64,000 bases of DNA from assembly GCA_964487845.1 (NCBI GenBank), contig CAZASK010000009.1, positions 5-64,004 of the forward strand, given 5' to 3'. The DNA is from an uncultured bacterium (lineage in GTDB: Bacteria; Chlamydiota; Chlamydiia; Chlamydiales; FEN-1388). The position numbers and the translations under genes were made by a program. Within the stretch, counting starts at the first letter, position 1, and every line of letters begins with the position of its first letter. This document shows positions 14,910-44,929 of this stretch, in pieces. The notes beneath the pieces were generated by a model, which had not been told where the DNA came from, ran no database searches, and was given only the letters and a program-made list of their open reading frames with translations.

Positions 14910-14967
14910 CTTTTGATGTTTTTTATATATGTGCTATAGTTATGTAAAAGTTGAATATAGAGTATAT

Positions 14968-17900
14968 ATGCAGCCGATAAAAAATTTGCAGCAACTTACT
15001 CTGGATACGCTTGTTGAGCAGGTGTCTGAAGGAAAGTTTTCTCCTAAAGGTATTAGTGGTCCCATAGCCAATAAAATTGTGGAAGCTGCTTTTAAAAAAT
15101 TAAAAGAAAACGAGGCGCTTTCTGAAGAGAGATGGAGGGGGATATCGTGCACTGAACTGAACACCAACGCTTTATCTTCTACAAACATAAAAATTTTATG
15201 TAAATTATGGGGGATGGAATTAAAAAAACTGGGTATTTCAAGCGGAGATTTTAAGGATTTTATTTTTACGTCTGATCCATTTCCAAAATTGGAGTCGTTG
15301 CATATATGCAACCCAAGAGATTTAACAAAAGAGAGTTTGCTAAAATTATGCGAAAAAATACCAGAAACATTGCAAGAATTTGTTGTTACTGAGTGTGAGC
15401 ATCTCGACGATGAGGTTATAGCCATTCTTTCAAAAAAATGTCCTCATTTAAAGATATTAAACGTGAGCGGGTATAACAAGGTTACGAAAGTTGGATCACA
15501 TTTCAAAGAACTTCAAGAACTAGATGTGTCTCGTACACAATTTACGGAAAAATCAATAGAAGAACTTGGAGGGTATCAACTCGATTCTATTAATTTATCT
15601 TACACTTCGATTGAAGATAAAGGGATTGAACTCCTCTCACAAAAATGTCCTGAATTAAAGATATTACATCTGTGCGGTTGTAAAAAGGTTACGAAGGTTG
15701 GATCAAATTTCAAAAAACTGCAGGGACTTGATGTATCTTATACAAAGTTTACGGATACATCAATAGACGAGCTAAAGGAGAATCAACTTAATTCTATTAA
15801 CATATCTCATACTCAGGTTGACAACACAGGTGTTAAATCGCTAGCGAATAGTAAAAATGGAAATACTCTTGAAGCATGTGTGATGAATGGCTGTTCTTCG
15901 ATCAGTGAATTGCCGGAGAGTTTTTCAAAAATGAAGTTCTTGGGTATTGCAGGTACAAAGATCACAGCACTACCTCGTAATATGTGCTCAGCAACAACTA
16001 TTGATGGCGTTCCGATGCTGCAGCAGGCGATGATGGATAAAAACGAATCGCTTTTTTCTTTTTTACTAGAAAGTTTGAATGAGAAAGAACTGATTGCTCA
16101 GGATAGGAGTGGAAATACAGCTCTTCATTATGCTTGTAAGCAGAAACAAAAAACAAATGTACAAGCACTAATTGAAAAAATGGATCAGTCAACATTAGGC
16201 ATTCAGGATCACGATGGGAAATCGGCTCTCAACCTCGCTATCGAATATAGGCTGACGGACATTGCCGTACAGCTTATTCATAAAATGAATCCTGACGATT
16301 TGAGCCATCAAGATAAAGAATTAGGACGACCTCTGTGGCTTGCAGTCATGTTTGACATGGACGATGTTGCAGCTGCTTTGATTGAAAAGATGCATTCTAA
16401 AAACTTGCAGCTTCAAGGCAAGAATGGACTGACACCTCTACATTTAGCTTGCCTGAAGGGCCGAAGTAATGTTGCAAAAGCCTTGATTGAAAAAATGAAT
16501 GCATCGGCGCTAAGCATACAGGATAAAGAGAAGGAATTGGCACTGCATTATGCTATTGGAAAGGACATGGACCATGTTGCAGTAGAGCTTATTAAAAAAA
16601 TGAATCCCCAAGATTTGAAGCATCGAAACAATGATGGTGATACAGCTCTCCACCTCGCATGTAAACGTAAGAACCCAGAAATTGTAAGTGCTTTGATTAA
16701 AAAAATGGATCAGTCAACATTAGCTATTCAGGATCACGATGGGAGTACAGCTCTAGAATTGGCGATTGACTTTGGACTAGATGATATTGCGGGCGATCTT
16801 ATTAAAAATATGAATTCTGAAGGTTTGAAGAAGCAAGACAAGTATGGTCGTACAGTCCTTCATACAGCTTGTCTGTATAACAGAGTAGAAGTTGCTCAAG
16901 CTTTGATTAAAAAAATGGATCAGTCAACATTATGTATCCAGAATAAAGATGGACAAACAGCTCTGCACAACGCGATTGAAAATAAGGCTAGCGACGTTGC
17001 AATAGCCCTTATTGAAAAAATGAACTCTAAAGATTTAAAACTGCAAGATTGCAATATGGATACAGCGCTGCACAAGGCGGTTTGGAAGAATAAAAACGAC
17101 GTTGCAATAGCCCTTATCGAAAAAATGAACTCTAAAGATTTAAAGTTGCAAGATAATAGAGGGGACACATGCTTGCATATGGCGTGTGCGTATACGCGAG
17201 TAGAAGTAGCGAAATTGCTGATCGAAAAAATGGATGAATCGGCACTTGGTATTCAAAATAAGGAAGGACGGCTAGCGCTGTACTGGGCGATTGAAAATAA
17301 GCATAGCGACATTGCAAAAGCTCTTATCCAAAAAATGAATCCTAAAGATTTAAAACTCCAAGGTAAGAAAAAACGAACGCCTCTTCATCATGCTGCTGAT
17401 AAAGAATTTGACGACATTGCTATGGAGTTGATTCAAAAGATGGGGTTTGAGGGTTTAAAGATTCAAGATTATCAAGGTTGTACGCCTCTTCATTTAGCTT
17501 GCCTGAAGGGCCGAAGTAATGTTGCAAAAGCCTTGATTGAAAAAATGGATGAATCGGCGCTAAGCATACAGGATAAAAAGAAGGAATTGGCACTGCATTT
17601 TGCTGTTGGCAATGACATGGATGATGTTGCAGTAGAGCTTATTCAAAAAATGAATCCAGACGATTTGAAGCATCAAAACGATGATGGTGATACAGCTCTT
17701 CATGAAGCTTGCCGAAGAAGTCGTGTAGAAGTCGCGAAATTACTGATCGAAAAAATGGATGAATCGACACTTGGTATTCAAGGGCGGGGAAAAAAGACAG
17801 CCTTGCATCTTGCTATTGAAAAGAAGTTGGGCGATGTTGCGGTAGCACTTATTGAAAAGATGCGCATTGAAGACTTGAGCCTACAAGATAGTAAGAAGTC

Positions 17901-17985
17901 AAATGCTCTATGTTACGCTTTGGAATACAAATTACAAGATGTTCTCGATGTTCTGATACCGAAAGTCGAATCTGAAGATAAATAA
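14968..17985 (+). CDS. large LRR plus ankyrin-repeat protein (eukaryote-like, effector candidate)
   Basis: N-terminal third carries FBXL/AMN1-type cysteine-containing LRRs (CPxLKILxxxGCxKVT repeated). The remainder is about 20 ankyrin repeats (G.TALH.A......VA.ALIEKM). Near-identical internal DNA duplications are present. Confidence 0.85.
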   Translation: MQPIKNLQQLTLDTLVEQVSEGKFSPKGISGPIANKIVEAAFKKLKENEALSEERWRGISCTELNTNALSSTNIKILCKLWGMELKKLGISSGDFKDFIFTSDPFPKLESLHICNPRDLTKESLLKLCEKIPETLQEFVVTECEHLDDEVIAILSKKCPHLKILNVSGYNKVTKVGSHFKELQELDVSRTQFTEKSIEELGGYQLDSINLSYTSIEDKGIELLSQKCPELKILHLCGCKKVTKVGSNFKKLQGLDVSYTKFTDTSIDELKENQLNSINISHTQVDNTGVKSLANSKNGNTLEACVMNGCSSISELPESFSKMKFLGIAGTKITALPRNMCSATTIDGVPMLQQAMMDKNESLFSFLLESLNEKELIAQDRSGNTALHYACKQKQKTNVQALIEKMDQSTLGIQDHDGKSALNLAIEYRLTDIAVQLIHKMNPDDLSHQDKELGRPLWLAVMFDMDDVAAALIEKMHSKNLQLQGKNGLTPLHLACLKGRSNVAKALIEKMNASALSIQDKEKELALHYAIGKDMDHVAVELIKKMNPQDLKHRNNDGDTALHLACKRKNPEIVSALIKKMDQSTLAIQDHDGSTALELAIDFGLDDIAGDLIKNMNSEGLKKQDKYGRTVLHTACLYNRVEVAQALIKKMDQSTLCIQNKDGQTALHNAIENKASDVAIALIEKMNSKDLKLQDCNMDTALHKAVWKNKNDVAIALIEKMNSKDLKLQDNRGDTCLHMACAYTRVEVAKLLIEKMDESALGIQNKEGRLALYWAIENKHSDIAKALIQKMNPKDLKLQGKKKRTPLHHAADKEFDDIAMELIQKMGFEGLKIQDYQGCTPLHLACLKGRSNVAKALIEKMDESALSIQDKKKELALHFAVGNDMDDVAVELIQKMNPDDLKHQNDDGDTALHEACRRSRVEVAKLLIEKMDESTLGIQGRGKKTALHLAIEKKLGDVAVALIEKMRIEDLSLQDSKKSNALCYALEYKLQDVLDVLIPKVESEDK

Positions 17986-36104: not shown

Positions 36105-36177
36105 GCTGACATAGCTCAATTGGTAGAGCACTCGACTTGTAATCGAGCGGTTGTGGGTTCAATTCCTACTGTCAGCA
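36105..36177 (+). tRNA. tRNA-Thr (anticodon TGT)
   Basis: Acceptor GCTGACA/TGTCAGC, anticodon stem CTCGA/TCGAG with loop CTTGTAA, T-loop TTCAATT. Confidence 0.9.
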
Positions 36178-36196
36178 TTTCTACCATCTTTTTGAT

Positions 36197-36278
36197 GGGG
36201 GTGTCGCATAGTGGCAATTGCAAGAGACTGTAAATCTCTCCTCTTCGGAGTTCGCCAGTTCGAGTCTGGCCGCCCCCA
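36197..36278 (+). tRNA. tRNA-Tyr (anticodon GTA), long variable arm
   Basis: Acceptor GGGGGTG/CGCCCCC, anticodon stem AGAGA/TCTCT with loop CTGTAAA, variable arm CTC-TTCG-GAG, T-arm GCCAG/CTGGC. Confidence 0.9.
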
Positions 36279-36367
36279 TTCATATTCCGGCTACCTTTAT
36301 TCGATATTATAGTCGATTAAATTTTGTATGACGCATTTTGACCTGCGAGCTTTCAAGAAATACTCAT

Positions 36368-36588: not shown

Positions 36589-37500
36589 ATGCAAGTTATA
36601 AGTCGTTTTGCTGTATTTGACCGAAGTGAATTCTTTCTCGCTAAAATTTCATCTGAGAAGCAATTTTATAACGAGTTTCATTTCAGAAGGCGCTACATAA
36701 GTGTATTGCAACAAGTTGCTAGCGAATGGTCCAAAACAAAACTATCCGAAGAAAAATGCTTTAAGATCAAATTTTCAGAGCCAAACTTCAATTTAAAGAA
36801 AATGAATGAGTCGTATTCTTCAGAGATAGTCGGTTATTTCACTGAACAAGGTCTTGAAGATAAACAAGTCTATGCAATAAACGGTTTAATTTATAACGCT
36901 GATCTTAGTTTCTACAATTCCAGTAAGCAATTAGATTTTGAAACAGGTGATGGTGAGATGATTGTAATGGACCGCTTAGGAAACATGTTTATCGCTCCTA
37001 AGGAACGAGGTATATTTCATCACTCATCGTTTTTTAGTGGAAAGCCTGTAGCTTTTGCTGCCTTATGTTTCATAAAGGATGGCAAAATCCAAGAACTGCT
37101 TAGATACAGTGGGCATTATTCGCCAAGTGAACAAGAAGAATGTGCCTTCACAAAACAATTGCAAACCAACTATCTTGTTGAAGAACGGGCTTATAGTGAT
37201 CTAAAAATTGATAGTACAGGTTGTTTAATACAAAGAATTTCCATCCTGTCCAAAGAAAAAGTTGAAGACTTATATAATGCTATTGCTGAATTAGGGGGAT
37301 TTTGCAGATCACGCTTGCACCTTATCAGTGGTGATAAGGTTGTTCCCTCTGCAAAGTTAGTAGATAAACAATTTGTTGATATGACAATAGCAGAATCTAA
37401 CTTAAAAAATCACTGTATAATTGATGCAGATGAATTCACCTACACTCCTTATCATAGGATATACCCTATTAGCAAATTTGAGTTGATCATTAACGATTAG
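36589..37500 (+). CDS. hypothetical protein (303 aa)
   Basis: Long ORF. Contains the conserved-looking block MDRLGNMFIAPKERGIFHHSSFFSGKPVAFAALCFIKDGKIQELLRYSGHYSP. I cannot assign a family. Confidence 0.5.
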   Translation: MQVISRFAVFDRSEFFLAKISSEKQFYNEFHFRRRYISVLQQVASEWSKTKLSEEKCFKIKFSEPNFNLKKMNESYSSEIVGYFTEQGLEDKQVYAINGLIYNADLSFYNSSKQLDFETGDGEMIVMDRLGNMFIAPKERGIFHHSSFFSGKPVAFAALCFIKDGKIQELLRYSGHYSPSEQEECAFTKQLQTNYLVEERAYSDLKIDSTGCLIQRISILSKEKVEDLYNAIAELGGFCRSRLHLISGDKVVPSAKLVDKQFVDMTIAESNLKNHCIIDADEFTYTPYHRIYPISKFELIIND

Positions 37501-37545
37501 TACATGAGAGAGCAGTAATTTTATATAAATATTGCTGACCCTCTA

Positions 37546-37593
37546 TTTTAACGCGGGTCTCCTATTAACCAAATAAATATTTGAGAAATTTTT
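37546..37593. repeat. 48-nt repeat, an inverted copy of 1..48
   Basis: 47/48 identical to the reverse complement of 1..48. Lies 46 nt after the stop of the 36589..37500 gene. Confidence 0.8.
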
Positions 37594-37869
37594 AGATAGA
37601 AAAACAACCTACGTTGAGAGTAAAAAGTTTGTGACTAACGAACAACTATAATCTCAATCAAAAACGGCATGAAGAGGACTCTTGCAATGGCAGCTAGATT
37701 GATTGGTCAGCCGATTACATGTTAATGCTGGACACATTGAAGGGCGCGCAGCGTGACGTTCACTTTCTTCCCGTCTACCGAATTTCATGGTATGAAAGGT
37801 GTAATTCTTGATATACACCTCCTTTTAATAGCGGCCAAAGGTCATTAAAAAAAACAGACAAGCTTGTTT

Positions 37870-38595
37870 ATGCTACAGTGGATATGTATTTTTTTATTTT
37901 ATGTCACAGCTTCTCTCTGTGCTCAAGATGCATGGGTGTCTTTCAAAAATGAGACTGTTTTAGAAATGAAGGCTATACCCGGGTGGTGTTCCTCAGAAAA
38001 GGCTCTCTTCATCATGGATATTATAAAAGAGAATAAATGCCAGTATTGCATTGAAGTTGGGGTTTTTTCAGGTATGTCCTTACTTCCTATAGCTAAAGCT
38101 CTACAATATAACGGATCAGGTACAGTTTTTGCTATTGATGCCTGGGATCCCTTTGAAGCGATAAAAGGTTTTAGTTCTTCTGACCCTAATTATATATGGT
38201 GGAGCCAGCTGGACTTTAACCATTTTTATGGACAAACTGTAGATTTAATTAATAAAAATAAACTAAATAATTTTTGTGACATCATAAAAAAGCCTTCACA
38301 TAATGCGGCATGTCTATTTATTGATGAAACCATAGATTTTATCCATTTGGATGGAAATCACAACGAAGAGTGTGCGTTTCAAGATGTAATTGACTACTTC
38401 CCCAAAGTGAAAGATGGCGGATATATTTTACTTAATGATCCAAACTGGTTAAGCATGAAGCGCTCTCTGGTTTTTCTTTTGGAGAGAGCTGAGCTGGTTT
38501 CTCTTTTTTCACCCTCCGCAACATATTTTCTTTTTCGTAAAAACAACCAGCGAGAAAAAAGTGCAAATATTTTATTTAAAAAATTAACTTCTTAA
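37870..38595 (+). CDS. class I SAM-dependent methyltransferase (Methyltransf_24-like) with an N-terminal signal/anchor
   Basis: MLQWICIFLFYVTASLCAQDAW N-terminus. CIEVGVFSGMS (motif I-like), AIDAW, IHLDGNH. Confidence 0.6.
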   Translation: MLQWICIFLFYVTASLCAQDAWVSFKNETVLEMKAIPGWCSSEKALFIMDIIKENKCQYCIEVGVFSGMSLLPIAKALQYNGSGTVFAIDAWDPFEAIKGFSSSDPNYIWWSQLDFNHFYGQTVDLINKNKLNNFCDIIKKPSHNAACLFIDETIDFIHLDGNHNEECAFQDVIDYFPKVKDGGYILLNDPNWLSMKRSLVFLLERAELVSLFSPSATYFLFRKNNQREKSANILFKKLTS

Positions 38596-38608
38596 CTGAG
38601 TGTCTTTT

Positions 38609-39454
38609 ATGAATATAAAATATTTTAGGTATTGCACTTTTCCATTTTTCATCACGCTCTTTACATGCGTAGCACAGCTGTGTCATTCAGAAGATTCGAT
38701 GTTTTGGTGGCAATCTAGTGAAGGGATTAATTTTGGAGATGATTTATCAAGAGTCATTGTAGAGAAAATTCTCGGTCATTCTGTTAAGTATAGATCTTTA
38801 GAATCAGATGGAAAACTGTTATTAGCGGCAGGATCAATCTTGCATTATGCTAGAGATGGTGATGTTATTTGGGGATCAGGTTTTCGAGAAAACCCCTTAT
38901 CAGAAAATAGATTCTCTCATCTTCATGTAAGAGCTGTGAGAGGGCCAAAAACAAGGGAATTTCTTCTTAAGATGGGCATCAATTGTCCTGAAATATATGG
39001 AGACCCGGCAGTATTAATGAGCTATTTATTTCCAGAGTTCAAACAAGAAGCGCCAATTTATGATTACATCATCATACCGAATATTGGAGAAATACAGTGC
39101 TTTCTAGGTTACAAAAATATCGTTTTACCCACGCGTCCATGGCAGGAAATTGTAAAAAAAATGATGCAAAGTAGACTAGTGATTTCTAGTTCTTTACATG
39201 GGATAATCGTCGCCGAATCTTTTGGAATACCTGCTCGCCTGCTTAAAATGACATGGATTGAGCCCTTGTTAAAATATCAGGATTACTATGAATCGAGTGG
39301 TAGGCCAAACTTCCGATACGCAACCTCAGTTCAGGAAGCTTTGCAAATGGGGGGTGAAGACCCAAGTAGCCTAGACATACATCCTCTCATAGAATCTTTC
39401 CCATGGGATTATTTTGAGAGCAATCATGATATTGATAAGCCAATACAGGAGTGA
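38609..39454 (+). CDS. polysaccharide pyruvyl transferase-family protein with a hydrophobic N-terminus
   Basis: NFGDDLS..I, GSIL, RGP.T, and SSSLHGIIVAESFGIPA match the PS_pyruv_trans pattern. N-terminus is MNIKYFRYCTFPFFITLFTCVAQLC. Confidence 0.65.
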   Translation: MNIKYFRYCTFPFFITLFTCVAQLCHSEDSMFWWQSSEGINFGDDLSRVIVEKILGHSVKYRSLESDGKLLLAAGSILHYARDGDVIWGSGFRENPLSENRFSHLHVRAVRGPKTREFLLKMGINCPEIYGDPAVLMSYLFPEFKQEAPIYDYIIIPNIGEIQCFLGYKNIVLPTRPWQEIVKKMMQSRLVISSSLHGIIVAESFGIPARLLKMTWIEPLLKYQDYYESSGRPNFRYATSVQEALQMGGEDPSSLDIHPLIESFPWDYFESNHDIDKPIQE

Positions 39455-39602
39455 TTGCTGCTTGAATGTACTAACTTTTAGAAGAATAAGCCTTGGCGAT
39501 ATAACCATTCCCGTGAAAGTTGGTTTACACTGTTTTTACACTTGGAATTACCAACGGAATCCTATATAAATATTTAAGTTTTATTATTGTGAAGAGGTCT
39601 CA

Positions 39603-40172
39603 ATGAAAATAGCTATCATCGGCACGCATGGAGCTGGGAAGACAACGCTTTCGTATCTCATGGCGGCTGCGTATAAAAAAATAGGGACGAATGTAAAAAT
39701 TGTGCAAGAGGTAGCAAGAAGTTGTCCGTATCCTTTGAATGAGGGGATGAGTCGAGAGGCATGTCTGTGGATTTATCATGAGCATGTAAAAAAAGAATTA
39801 GATGCGATACAAAAGCATGATATCGTTATCTGTGATCGTTCTGCTTTAGATTCTTTCATGTATGCGAAAGCTCAAAATTGTTATGATTATACAGATCGAG
39901 GAATCAATCTTTGCTTTGAAAGCGCTTCTCATTGGATGAAGACATACGATCAAATTATCTATGTAAAACCAGGCAAGATTAAGCCCATGGAAGATGGAGT
40001 GCGCTCCGTAGATTTAGAATTCCAAAGACGAGTTGCAGAGCAATTCAATGAGTGGTTTTTGAACAATAGCACTGTGATCAAGTCTGCAGAGCTAGACGCA
40101 GACGCAATATTTGATCAAGAGAACCTTATGGAAAGATTACTTGAAAAAGCACGCTGCTGCATCGCATCGTAG
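39603..40172 (+). CDS. AAA_28 P-loop kinase (NadR ribosylnicotinamide-kinase-domain-like)
   Basis: MKIAIIGTHGAGKTTL P-loop, VQEVAR, ICDRSALDSFMY. Confidence 0.55.
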   Translation: MKIAIIGTHGAGKTTLSYLMAAAYKKIGTNVKIVQEVARSCPYPLNEGMSREACLWIYHEHVKKELDAIQKHDIVICDRSALDSFMYAKAQNCYDYTDRGINLCFESASHWMKTYDQIIYVKPGKIKPMEDGVRSVDLEFQRRVAEQFNEWFLNNSTVIKSAELDADAIFDQENLMERLLEKARCCIAS

Positions 40173-40230
40173 TCTCACTATAGATTCGATATGTAGCCCG
40201 TGTGTATAATTTCTGAACAAGGAGATAAAA

Positions 40231-40458
40231 ATGTTTATTTGGGTGATTACAGCAATTGCTCTTTTTGGAACCTGGTTAAATGCAAAGCAGAATGCATATG
40301 GCTTTTTGTTTTGGATGGTGTCTAATGCCGCATTTTGTATATGGAATTACCAAATAGAGCAATATGCTCAGTCTGTATTGTTTTTTGTCTATTTATGGCT
40401 GGCTATATTTGGGTATGTAAGCTGGCGCAAAAAAGAACGAAAAGTAGAAGCTGCATAG
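40231..40458 (+). CDS. 3-TM mini PnuC-like membrane protein (75 aa)
   Basis: Strong RBS AAGGAGA. Three TM segments. The pattern LNAKQN..GFLFWMVSNAAFCIWNY......SVLFFVYLWLAIFGYVSW resembles the C-terminal triple-helix bundle of PnuC nicotinamide riboside transporters. Confidence 0.5.
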   Translation: MFIWVITAIALFGTWLNAKQNAYGFLFWMVSNAAFCIWNYQIEQYAQSVLFFVYLWLAIFGYVSWRKKERKVEAA

Positions 40459-40483
40459 CGCTCGTAAGAGAGCGCCCTAAAAA

Positions 40484-41664: not shown

Positions 41665-43047
41665 TTAGCGGTTGCTCATGTATGGTAGTTTGTGAGGCTC
41701 TGAAAAGCTGGGGGTTGTATTTTTTGGATCAGTTAGGTCCCATAGCTGGATGTAGCCATTTGTTTCTCCGCTACGAGCAGAACCTGCAGTGACAAGAAGA
41801 TTGTTATCGGGTAAAAGACCGAGATTTGTATGGCGATGATTCGTGCCATTGAAGGAGCAAATATTCTGGAATCGAGGTTTCTGCTCGTATTCTGTATTAA
41901 GATGATAGAAGCTGATATTTCCATTGGCTAGATTTACTGTTTGTGTACGATTTTGTGTGCTGTTTGTGCGTGGTCTGAGTGTTGTAGCTAGGGTGTTATT
42001 TTCTGTAAATAAAAGTCGTGTAATCGCATGAGCAATCTTGAGTTGATGAATTGGTTCTTCTGACTGAATGTTGAGTGAGTGAAGGGTGCCGTCCTTTAGG
42101 CCTCCACCAGCTACAAGCTCAGTGCTGGAATAAGGATTCCAAGAAACTTGCATAGCAGCATAATTGATTGGATCGGCTAAGATAGTAATAATTTCCGCAT
42201 CTTCAATATTTTTTCTTATGTCATAAATTTTGACTGTTCCATTGTTCATGCCGGTGGCAAATAGAGACGGATTTTTTTGAGATACGGAGACGCTAGCTAA
42301 TTTGTCTGCCACATCAAATATTTTGCTTTCAACCATCTCATTTATTCGAAAGTCGCATAAAAGAAGACTTGTTTGTGACCGTTCACTTGGTAAGGCGCCG
42401 ATTAAAAATGTATTATTATCGATAGAAGTAAGTTGATTGGGTGTATGATCCGGTATCTCCAATAGATGTATCCTCTTCTGGCAATTCACATCGTATGACC
42501 AAACAGAAAAAGAGTTGGTAATCCGATTCATTACAGAGGTGAAAACTGTATGTGCATTACCCCACTGTATGTCATGAGGTAGGAATGTTTTATAAGTATT
42601 CTTTTCTTCATCTTCACATATGCCTGGAAATGGAATGGTGTGCTTAACTTTGTAATTTTTCGAAAATCCAAGGGTATCTTGTGGCACCGTTAGAATGTGC
42701 ACACCGTTATCTATTGTGCTGTGGTCATTGACAGTGTAAGCAATAGCGTTTCCGCGGCAGGTGATATTTTTTGTATAGTAATCATCCGTTATCCCTTCAT
42801 AGGGGATTACGTGTTTTGCTATTGGATTGATTGTATTTCGTTTGTTTTTGAGTTGTTCGTTGAGGTTTTTTTGTAGTAATTTATTGGATATAATTTTACT
42901 TGCAATAGTGTCAATTGGCAGGTCGAGAGCTTTGAATAACGATGGTTGTTCTACACACTGAGGATTTGTTGTTGCATAATATAGGGATGAGAGATTTAGT
43001 GGGTGCCCTCTATGTGAATCTACTCGTGTCATTACTGGGTTGTTCAT
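41665..43047 (-). CDS. WD40-like beta-propeller protein (eukaryote-like)
   Basis: Repeated blade endings: GTVKIYDI, GYIQLWDL, SVWSYDV, GNISFYHL, GTLHSLNI. Confidence 0.55.
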   Translation of the reverse strand: MNNPVMTRVDSHRGHPLNLSSLYYATTNPQCVEQPSLFKALDLPIDTIASKIISNKLLQKNLNEQLKNKRNTINPIAKHVIPYEGITDDYYTKNITCRGNAIAYTVNDHSTIDNGVHILTVPQDTLGFSKNYKVKHTIPFPGICEDEEKNTYKTFLPHDIQWGNAHTVFTSVMNRITNSFSVWSYDVNCQKRIHLLEIPDHTPNQLTSIDNNTFLIGALPSERSQTSLLLCDFRINEMVESKIFDVADKLASVSVSQKNPSLFATGMNNGTVKIYDIRKNIEDAEIITILADPINYAAMQVSWNPYSSTELVAGGGLKDGTLHSLNIQSEEPIHQLKIAHAITRLLFTENNTLATTLRPRTNSTQNRTQTVNLANGNISFYHLNTEYEQKPRFQNICSFNGTNHRHTNLGLLPDNNLLVTAGSARSGETNGYIQLWDLTDPKNTTPSFSEPHKLPYMSNR

Positions 43048-44833: not shown

Positions 44834-44929
44834 ATCGACGAATCCAACAGTTGTTTCTATAAAATTCGTGCAATTTTTTTGTTGTAATTGATAGTTTCAT
44901 GATTTTTTCATGCATGTCTGGATTTGATT

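Follow-up and report, generated by a model that had tools for sequence, protein, structure and literature searches.

A stand-alone NadR-like kinase paired with a half-size Pnu protein: a candidate uptake-and-trap cassette of phages and of a bacterial chromosome

Transporters of the Pnu family are facilitators, and net uptake through them needs the trapping of the substrate by a kinase, which is typically encoded nearby (PMC5749112). Their full-length members have 7–8 transmembrane (TM) helices, and a core of 7 TM helices has been called “present in all Pnu members” (PMC5749112). In a 64-kb stretch of DNA from an uncultured bacterium (contig CAZASK010000009.1; the whole of this stretch is referred to below as the window), a gene for a kinase of the AAA_28 family is followed by one for a protein of only 75 amino acids (aa). 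This 75-aa protein is a homologue of one Pnu repeat and not a canonical member of the family, the 7-TM core (3+1+3) in one polypeptide being absent from a chain of only three helices. We think it reasonably likely that the two gene products constitute a minimal uptake-and-trap module, in which a homodimeric “SemiPnu” facilitator would work together with a trapping kinase that most likely converts nicotinamide riboside (NR) to nicotinamide mononucleotide (NMN).

A known system of this kind is PnuC/NadR (PnuC structure 4QTN; PF04973, TC 4.B.1), with which the 75-aa protein has a homologous repeat, the ligand and gate motifs and the topology of the repeat in common, and with which the proposed cassette would, by analogy, share the principle of facilitated diffusion followed by trapping through an AAA_28/ribosylnicotinamide kinase (RNK). 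In comparison to PnuC, the 75-aa protein is a single three-helix repeat that lacks both the linker TM4 and the additional N-terminal helix, and in comparison to NadR the 189-aa window kinase is stand-alone, with neither the NMN adenylyltransferase (NMNAT) nor the helix-turn-helix (HTH) domain. The best experimental case of a Pnu facilitator with metabolic trapping is that of PnuT and the thiamine kinases, from which we have also taken the definitions of the motif and of the gates.

A two-gene cassette of phages, NARP3, has recently been described (PMC13464706, 2026), which consists of the NadR-like RNK-NMNAT enzyme Bas30_86 and the PnuC Bas30_87 and rebuilds the NAD+ depleted by Sir2-HerA. Its enzyme gene lies immediately upstream of its transporter gene, which is also the order seen in the phage relatives of the window cassette, and of all solved structures its RNK domain is nearest to the present kinase family, with the key RNK residues conserved. 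The two systems nevertheless differ in several ways. The NARP3 transporter is full-length, with a size of ~24 kDa, and is a trimer, whereas the transporter of the cassette described here is half-size; the NARP3 enzyme is bifunctional and makes NAD+, whereas the present one is a kinase only, the product of which would be NMN; and NARP3 is phage-borne, whereas the window copy, with the same order of genes, is chromosomal and has no phage genes nearby. NARP3 rescues from an NAD+-depleting defence, and what the present cassette shares with it is a likeness of genes.

The idea of a half-transporter has its precedent in the SemiSWEETs, which carry one triple-helix bundle per gene and in which the parallel homodimer corresponds to the duplicated full-length transporter. 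The architectural idea is the same here, as an analogy only. In the literature covered, a three-helix “semiPnu” has been treated as a hypothetical ancestor only (PMC7162841), while both the size of the Pnu repeat unit, 3 or 4 helices, and the relatedness of the Pnu and SWEET families have been disputed (PMC7162841, PMC7176098). A literature search of incomplete coverage, which leaves an earlier mention possible, found no paper on natural half-size Pnu proteins or on their kinase partner.

The 75-aa protein and the half-size family

The features of the locus, in coordinates of the window, are the following:
39603–40172, plus strand: stand-alone P-loop nucleoside/nucleotide kinase of the AAA_28 family (NadR-RNK-like), 189 aa, ATG start, assigned by Pfam
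39621–39647, plus strand: Walker A motif (P-loop) GTHGAGKTT, kinase residues 7–15, from the translation
40219–40225, plus strand: Shine-Dalgarno sequence AAGGAGA, 5 nucleotides (nt) before the ATG of the small open reading frame (ORF), read from the sequence
40231–40458, plus strand: putative half-size (“Semi”) Pnu transporter, 75 aa, ATG start, from PF04973 and AlphaFold
40303–40326, plus strand: F25-L-F-W28-M-V-S-N32, counterpart of the Pnu TM6 ligand-binding motif WxxW(x)3D/N, as defined in PMC5749112
40390–40425, plus strand: Y54 to W65, putative external-gate Tyr and, closing TM3, the cytoplasmic-gate Trp, after PMC5749112
40458–40475, no strand: inverted repeat GCGCTC-gtaaga-GAGCGC, read from the sequence

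The assignment of the 75-aa ORF to the Pnu family rests first on its match to the Pfam family NMN_transporter (PF04973), with 35.8 bits (cut-off 27.3, E = 1e-8), which is shared by 69 of the 71 aligned members of its family. The match covers 63 positions, 113–175 of the 175 of the profile, i.e. the C-terminal repeat, while the NCBIfam profile TIGR01528 (PnuC) aligns the same ORF to its N-terminal repeat (positions 13–73 of 187), as is to be expected where a fold with internal duplication is present in one copy only. The TIGR01528 score, 23 bits against a cut-off of 42.45, is below the threshold of this full-length equivalog, which is likewise expected, since the ORF is only half a protein. The hidden Markov model (HMM) of the half-size family matches each half of seven full-length PnuCs, with 31–54 bits per half. 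No Pfam match to MtN3/PQ-loop was obtained for the 75-aa ORF at E ≤ 1.

According to the mutagenesis and the structures of PnuT and PnuC, the motif WxxW(x)3D/N in TM6 binds the ligand, in TM3 and TM7 a Trp at the end facing the cytoplasm is the inner gate, and the outer gate includes a Tyr located 11 residues before the inner-gate Trp (PMC5749112). These are the positions that are kept in the half-size proteins. In the alignment of the 71 members, G13 and G61 are invariant and F25, W28, N32, L50 and W65 are conserved at ≥90%. As for the ligand motif, F25 is found in 67 members, W28 in 70 and N32 in 64, with an Asp in six more, whereas the motif of the full-length PnuT ends in Asp (D166). As for the gates, W65 is found in 68 members and Y54 in 51, with a Phe in a further 10, and their spacing of 11 is that of Y77/W88 and Y188/W199 in PnuT. 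The first Trp of the ligand motif is replaced by Phe in the 75-aa protein (F25), a replacement that is tolerated in PnuT, the W159F variant of which still binds its ligand (PMC5749112).

The AlphaFold model of the 75-aa protein, which was built with the 71-sequence alignment, consists of three helices and has a mean predicted local distance difference test score (pLDDT) of 97.4; the predicted TM helices span residues 2–18, 24–41 and 45–74. Its top match by fold in the PDB is PnuC (4QTN), with a Foldseek probability of 0.98, a query TM-score of 0.73 and an rmsd (root mean square deviation) of 1.6 Å over 64 columns, the weak E-values of the fold search being due to the very small query (75 aa). 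In contrast, SemiSWEET 4X5M superimposes with an rmsd of ~5.5 Å and a probability of 0.51, so the arrangement of the helices differs, and there is no detectable sequence homology to SemiSWEETs. The initial annotation had proposed, from the sequence, a PnuC-like protein with only one bundle next to a NadR-like kinase, and had recommended an HMM search as a check. With PF04973 and AAA_28 both scoring above their cut-offs, the ligand and gate motifs kept, a fold that is PnuC-like and not SemiSWEET-like, three helices in the model and no second repeat in the window, that proposal has held up well.

The small gene is not the remnant of a disrupted full-length PnuC gene; the initial annotation had likewise noticed no PnuC-like frame upstream. 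When the family HMM was run against all stop-to-stop frames of the 64-kb window, the 75-aa ORF was matched with E = 2.9e-35 and the next frame with E = 0.017, so that no second PnuC-like frame is present in the whole window and this candidate explanation was ruled out; in addition, complete single-domain half-size ORFs are present in 54 fetched loci.

The positions of both ORFs and the AAGGAGA ribosome-binding site were already correctly given in the initial annotation, and the peptides which it quoted, LNAKQN, FWMVSN and IFGYVSW, are found at residues 16–21, 27–32 and 59–65. Regarding the start of the small gene, the NCBI-derived cluster member for it (P0280) apparently has 71 aa, a length compatible with initiation at codon 5, a GTG. 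More plausible as a start is the ATG that precedes this codon by four, because the strong AAGGAGA is located there and the homologues align from residue 1–3.

An exhaustive phmmer search with the 75-aa protein against 1.84 billion cluster representatives (E ≤ 1e-3) returned 661 related clusters, of which the best 150 were counted by architecture. Among these best 150 of 661, 143 are single-bundle proteins, 113 are no longer than 105 aa, and only seven are two-repeat full-length PnuCs (172–210 aa); the other longer proteins have one three-helix domain with a soluble extension before or after it. The half-size Pnu proteins are thus a real, selected family, and the survey for further half-size PnuC genes proposed in the initial annotation has yielded mostly single-bundle relatives. 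Other searches returned much less: a word-indexed protein search found no match to the 75-aa protein except itself, and only 12 proteins with the 71-sequence profile, and a first scan of genome contigs with the 75-aa protein found no match. No tblastn match to three members of the family was found among 50,697 records of isolated phages, which suggests that, at the level of similarity detectable by tblastn, the family is essentially confined to uncultured phages.

At the level of the fold, the viral structure library BFVD holds many proteins of 68–101 aa with the same fold (TM-score 0.58–0.84), some of which are already named “nicotinamide riboside transporter PnuC”. Short viral proteins with a PnuC label, such as those of Gordonia phage Avazak (84 aa), Mycobacterium phage Shrimp (100 aa) and uncultured Caudovirales (77 and 93 aa), as well as phrog_2421, have the same fold and size as the 75-aa protein, yet only 11–30% identity to it. 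In PHROGs, weak matches were found to small families of “unknown function” (phrog_2421, phrog_19093 and phrog_14697). Half-size proteins have therefore already been recorded at the level of annotation, whereas neither the half-transporter architecture nor the family size nor the obligate coupling to a kinase appears to have been described. The single-repeat Pnu-like fold was also noted in the BFVD entries W8W1N3, W8W2D6 and Q9EN45, proteins of 80–111 aa from invertebrate iridoviruses and from Amsacta moorei entomopoxvirus (AMV001); these eukaryotic-virus proteins with the same predicted fold indicate that the half-size form may not be confined to phages.

Basic residues in the half-size family are concentrated in loop 1 (mean of 2.2 Lys plus Arg) and in the C-tail (2.0), as compared to the N-terminus (0.28) and loop 2 (0.41), which gives one fixed topology, with the N-terminus outside and the C-terminus inside, the same as that of each PnuC repeat. 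Such a fixed topology permits a parallel homodimer and argues against an antiparallel one of dual topology. Furthermore, the conserved residues of the family are those that line the central cavity of PnuC, which a single three-helix bundle would presumably be unable to enclose. These features are compatible with a parallel dimer; homodimerisation and transport are both what we infer. In the mechanism that we favour, the 75-aa protein would insert in the N-out/C-in orientation and two copies would pair in parallel, rebuilding a six-helix pore equivalent to TM1–3 plus TM5–7 of full-length PnuC, with each protomer contributing one FxxWxxxN ligand motif and one Tyr/Trp gate pair.

Pairing of the two genes in phages and genomes

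On the phage contigs that carry the closest kinase homologues, the gene following the kinase gene is a half-size PnuC gene (68–105 aa), which often overlaps the kinase stop by 4–25 nt. It is directly downstream of the kinase in all lineages examined but one, and a half-size partner is present at 22 of the 22 closest kinase loci overall, so that the working pair envisaged in the initial annotation has turned out to be a conserved cassette. In IMG/VR, 31 of 80 kinase loci have a half-size gene within 3 kb, in 30 of the 31 cases downstream and on the same strand, and the partner is always a single-repeat ORF; where the kinase scores E < 1e-50 with the family HMM, the half-size gene is found in 20/20. 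Among species-representative genomes it is found at 2 of 47 kinase loci, which are those of the two best-scoring kinases, one in a Chlamydiia metagenome-assembled genome (MAG) and one in an Opitutales MAG. The closest kinase homologues (57–68% identity) are encoded on contigs of ~22–46 kb together with portal, terminase, ERF, YqaJ and DnaC-like genes. The cassette is thus mainly phage-borne and located among early genes, a parallel to phage NARP3, of which it would be a stripped-down counterpart, and this goes beyond what the initial annotation had foreseen.

In the Chlamydiia MAG (JBBSJT010000136.1, our locus L106), the kinase gene and the half-size ORF overlap by 19 nt, phage genes are absent nearby, and the pair adjoins a 246-aa ORF and a 428-aa ORF that resembles a protein kinase. 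The window kinase is closer to its phage homologues (65–68% identity) than to this Chlamydiia copy (49%), which suggests that the window cassette was acquired from phages. The window copy would then be a cassette taken up into the chromosome of a probably intracellular (Chlamydiia-like) bacterium.

It has to be noted that some observations do not conform to this picture. In one close kinase lineage (P0005), a soluble 71-aa ORF occupies the place where the half-size PnuC is expected, and the half-size homologue of the Chlamydiia copy (L106, 1989–2225) has kept GFxxWxxxN and lacks the Trp of the cytoplasmic gate (…GNGLRIS…). The missing gate Trp could be taken to mean that the 75-aa protein does not work as a transporter by itself and is instead a modulator or poison of the host PnuC, acting via mixed assemblies, or a holin-like or exclusion membrane protein derived from a Pnu repeat. 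Small proteins with three TM helices are frequent as phage membrane effectors, and the three related PHROGs are of unknown function, as mentioned above. Such a role appears improbable, as the residues that are kept across 25–58% identity are precisely the Pnu ligand and gate residues, which would be needless for a holin or an inhibitor. The strict coupling to a kinase of the nucleoside type agrees with metabolic trapping, the phage copies are found in early or accessory regions and not in lysis cassettes, and the window copy is chromosomal, host-like in GC content and unchanged on five contigs.

A different type of neighbour was encountered in a few phage loci, some with and some without the half-size PnuC, where genes for a Metallophos protein and a PNKP-type HAD phosphatase (HAD_PNKP) lie near the kinase (L009–L011, 6063–7401; L006/L007, 4841–6030), RtcB adjoins the cassette (L102/L103, in L103 directly upstream of the kinase; L103, 251–1420) and a Metallophos homologue is present (L022). 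These RNA-repair-type genes also speak against a simple uptake module; they might point to a second role of the kinase, or the site may be a hot spot for accessory genes. It is nevertheless highly improbable that the kinase belongs to an RNA-repair set as its 5'-OH polynucleotide kinase and that a membrane protein is encoded beside it by coincidence. Such neighbours occur in only about four lineages, compared to a half-size PnuC at all 22 closest kinases, and none of them is found near the window copy or the Chlamydiia copy, while the overlaps of the genes indicate the co-translation of kinase and transporter. The linkage of the kinase to RNA repair was consequently rejected, as it is found in few lineages only.

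Further neighbours were recorded at the more distant loci. Distant kinase homologues from genomes of the candidate phyla radiation (CPR), DPANN and Acidobacteria have mixed neighbours, including dUTPase, isochorismatase, TatD and MFS genes. In a Magasanikiibacteriota MAG (L120, 4608–5234), a gene of the isochorismatase/nicotinamidase family overlaps the kinase stop, and in a Woesearchaeota MAG (L109, 4686–4964) a dUTPase gene lies downstream of a distant kinase, the half-size PnuC being absent from both; the neighbours at these two loci are hints at differing substrates. In one phage locus (L037, 1777–1950), a second and weaker half-size PnuC-like ORF of 58 aa (E = 6e-8) was found ~1.5 kb upstream of the kinase, possibly a partner for heterodimerisation, or else a copy that has decayed.

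The kinase and its candidate substrate

The kinase scores 53.1 bits against AAA_28 (PF13521; cut-off 27, E = 5.5e-14) and remains below the thresholds of Thymidylate_kin (PF02223, 23.3 bits against 27, E = 5.8e-5), dNK (PF01712, 18.4 bits against 27, E = 1.9e-3) and TIGR00041 (20.9 bits against 83). The NadR profile TIGR01526 aligns to it only at positions 164–317, with 20.4 bits against a cut-off of 341. The search for homologues detected 396 of them, nearly all stand-alone proteins of 170–190 aa, and in 52 aligned homologues the invariant positions include GTHGxGKT (G7, H9, G12, K13), E36, R39, E65, D78-R79, Y115 and D131-G-x-R134. The AlphaFold model of the kinase has a pLDDT of 94.6.

In a profile search of the PDB sequences, the first match over the whole domain was 9X6F, residues 174–325 (E = 5.4e-7), which outranks deoxyguanosine kinase, thymidylate kinases and the NadR of L. 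lactis. This entry is Bas30_86, the NARP3 enzyme, in which the RNK domain comprises native residues 167–351; the numbering of the chain is that of the native protein plus 6, the chain having 357 residues and native Bas30_86 351. Mutation of its RNK-site residues E230 and D275 abolishes the regeneration of NAD+ (PMC13464706). In the profile alignment, E230 corresponds to kinase E65, which is conserved in 52/52 homologues, and D275 to D116, which is Asp in 38/52; the lid DGxR is also aligned. The NadR-like AAA_28 kinase of the initial annotation is therefore borne out, both by PF13521 and by a NadR-type RNK domain as the top whole-domain match in the PDB. The assignment to the superfamily is secure, and the affinity to RNK is moderate.

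Three observations favour nicotinamide riboside as the substrate: among the profiles, AAA_28/RNK matches best, the residues of the RNK site are conserved, and the ligand motif of the transporter ends in Asn, as in PnuC. In the proposed mechanism, the substrate, most likely nicotinamide riboside, would be a vitamin that resembles a nucleoside and is uncharged or cationic, and it would enter the cell down its gradient. The AAA_28 kinase would phosphorylate it to NMN, so that the product would be trapped and the inward gradient kept, and the NMN would then join the cell's own NAD+ pathway.

Several findings are at odds with nicotinamide riboside, and together they make a (deoxy)nucleoside the main competitor. 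In the Foldseek search with the kinase model, thymidylate and deoxyadenosine kinases rank above NadR (rank 42), with TM-scores of 0.6–0.72 for thymidylate kinases and the deoxyadenosine kinase of Mycoplasma and 0.62 for E. coli NadR. In the kinase family the triplet DRS (D78-R79-S80) is invariant, and it recalls the “DRY” of thymidylate kinase (TMK) or the “ERS” of deoxynucleoside kinase (dNK) more than the sequence found there in the RNK of NadR. Among the PHROGs and JGI labels of the relatives of the kinase, “thymidylate kinase” is as frequent as “nicotinamide riboside kinase”, and the phage cassettes sit among replication and recombination genes. Also, in the absence of an NMNAT domain the cassette would be unable to make NAD+ by itself.

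These findings can be accommodated by an alternative in which the half-size Pnu dimer and the trapping kinase are retained and the substrate would be a deoxynucleoside or ribonucleoside, e.g. thymidine, or another vitamin, feeding phage DNA synthesis and not NAD+ pools. Besides the kinase folds, the DRS triplet and the position among ERF, YqaJ and DnaC-like genes, it draws on the best PHROG of the kinase (phrog_2107, “thymidylate kinase”, E = 1.5e-25), on the dUTPase gene adjoining one distant kinase homologue and on the fact that the Pnu family has members for substrates other than NR, such as PnuT (PMC5749112). It appears somewhat unlikely, however, as AAA_28 is passed whereas Thymidylate_kin, dNK and TIGR00041 are all below their thresholds, a true RNK domain comes first over the whole domain, and the motif of the transporter ends in the Asn of PnuC and not in the Asp of PnuT. 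Moreover, the substrate of a true thymidylate kinase is dTMP, and phosphorylated compounds would not pass through a Pnu facilitator. The high similarity to thymidylate kinases in the predicted fold is uninformative, because this fold is common to the whole superfamily, and a comparison of such models is without power to separate the substrates.

With nicotinamide riboside as the preferred substrate, a wider proposal can be put forward tentatively: natural “SemiPnu” parallel homodimers with a dedicated kinase may be the smallest known salvage module for an NAD+ precursor, possibly in wide use by phages against NAD+-depleting immunity and captured by obligate intracellular bacteria. If true, this smaller and more widespread cassette would extend metabolite-based counter-defence far beyond the enterobacterial phages of NARP3. 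For the evolution of transporters, a large family of three-helix Pnu repeats that occur in nature as proteins of their own is an object to crystallise, to assay and to place on the tree; the direction of evolution, like the substrate, is something that we infer. For engineering, a transporter of 75 aa would make an attractive minimal part.

Surroundings of the cassette in the window

In the window, the kinase ORF and the 75-aa ORF are both on the plus strand and are separated by 58 nt. Upstream of the kinase, on the same strand, Pfam assigns a Methyltransf_24 methyltransferase and a polysaccharide pyruvyl transferase, and downstream of the small ORF a convergent SnoaL-like gene, a TetR regulator and a WD40 protein. 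The GC content is 0.40 for the kinase gene, 0.36 for the small ORF and 0.40 for the whole window. Five independent metagenome contigs encode an identical 75-aa protein with the same neighbours, the order of kinase and small ORF being kept. The inverted repeat at 40458–40475 separates the convergent small ORF and SnoaL-like gene and is followed by no T-run; it may be a bidirectional transcript end, and it was not among the calls of a terminator scan.

A prophage context of the window was considered and rejected, as no phage structural or integrase genes are present and the PHROG matches nearby are generic. The window encodes the chromosomal functions MurB, FolC, NifS and SurE along with ankyrin, WD40 and collagen-like proteins. 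The eukaryote-like and surface proteins (14929–17985, 41665–43047, 44924–46159 and 46184–47026) include two proteins with ankyrin repeats that resemble Dot/Icm Ank effectors, a WD40 propeller similar to CDC20/Fizzy and a collagen-like protein related to BclB, and together they suggest an intracellular or amoeba-associated lifestyle. The gene content as a whole fits a host-associated bacterium, and a Chlamydiia-type organism with a chromosomal cassette may tap the nucleoside or vitamin pools of its host.

Lastly, the genes for tRNA-Thr and tRNA-Tyr (36105–36279) lie just upstream of a block (36589–40458) composed of a 303-aa ORF of unassigned family, the methyltransferase, the pyruvyl transferase, the kinase and the half-size PnuC, and this block might be an island inserted beside the tRNA genes.

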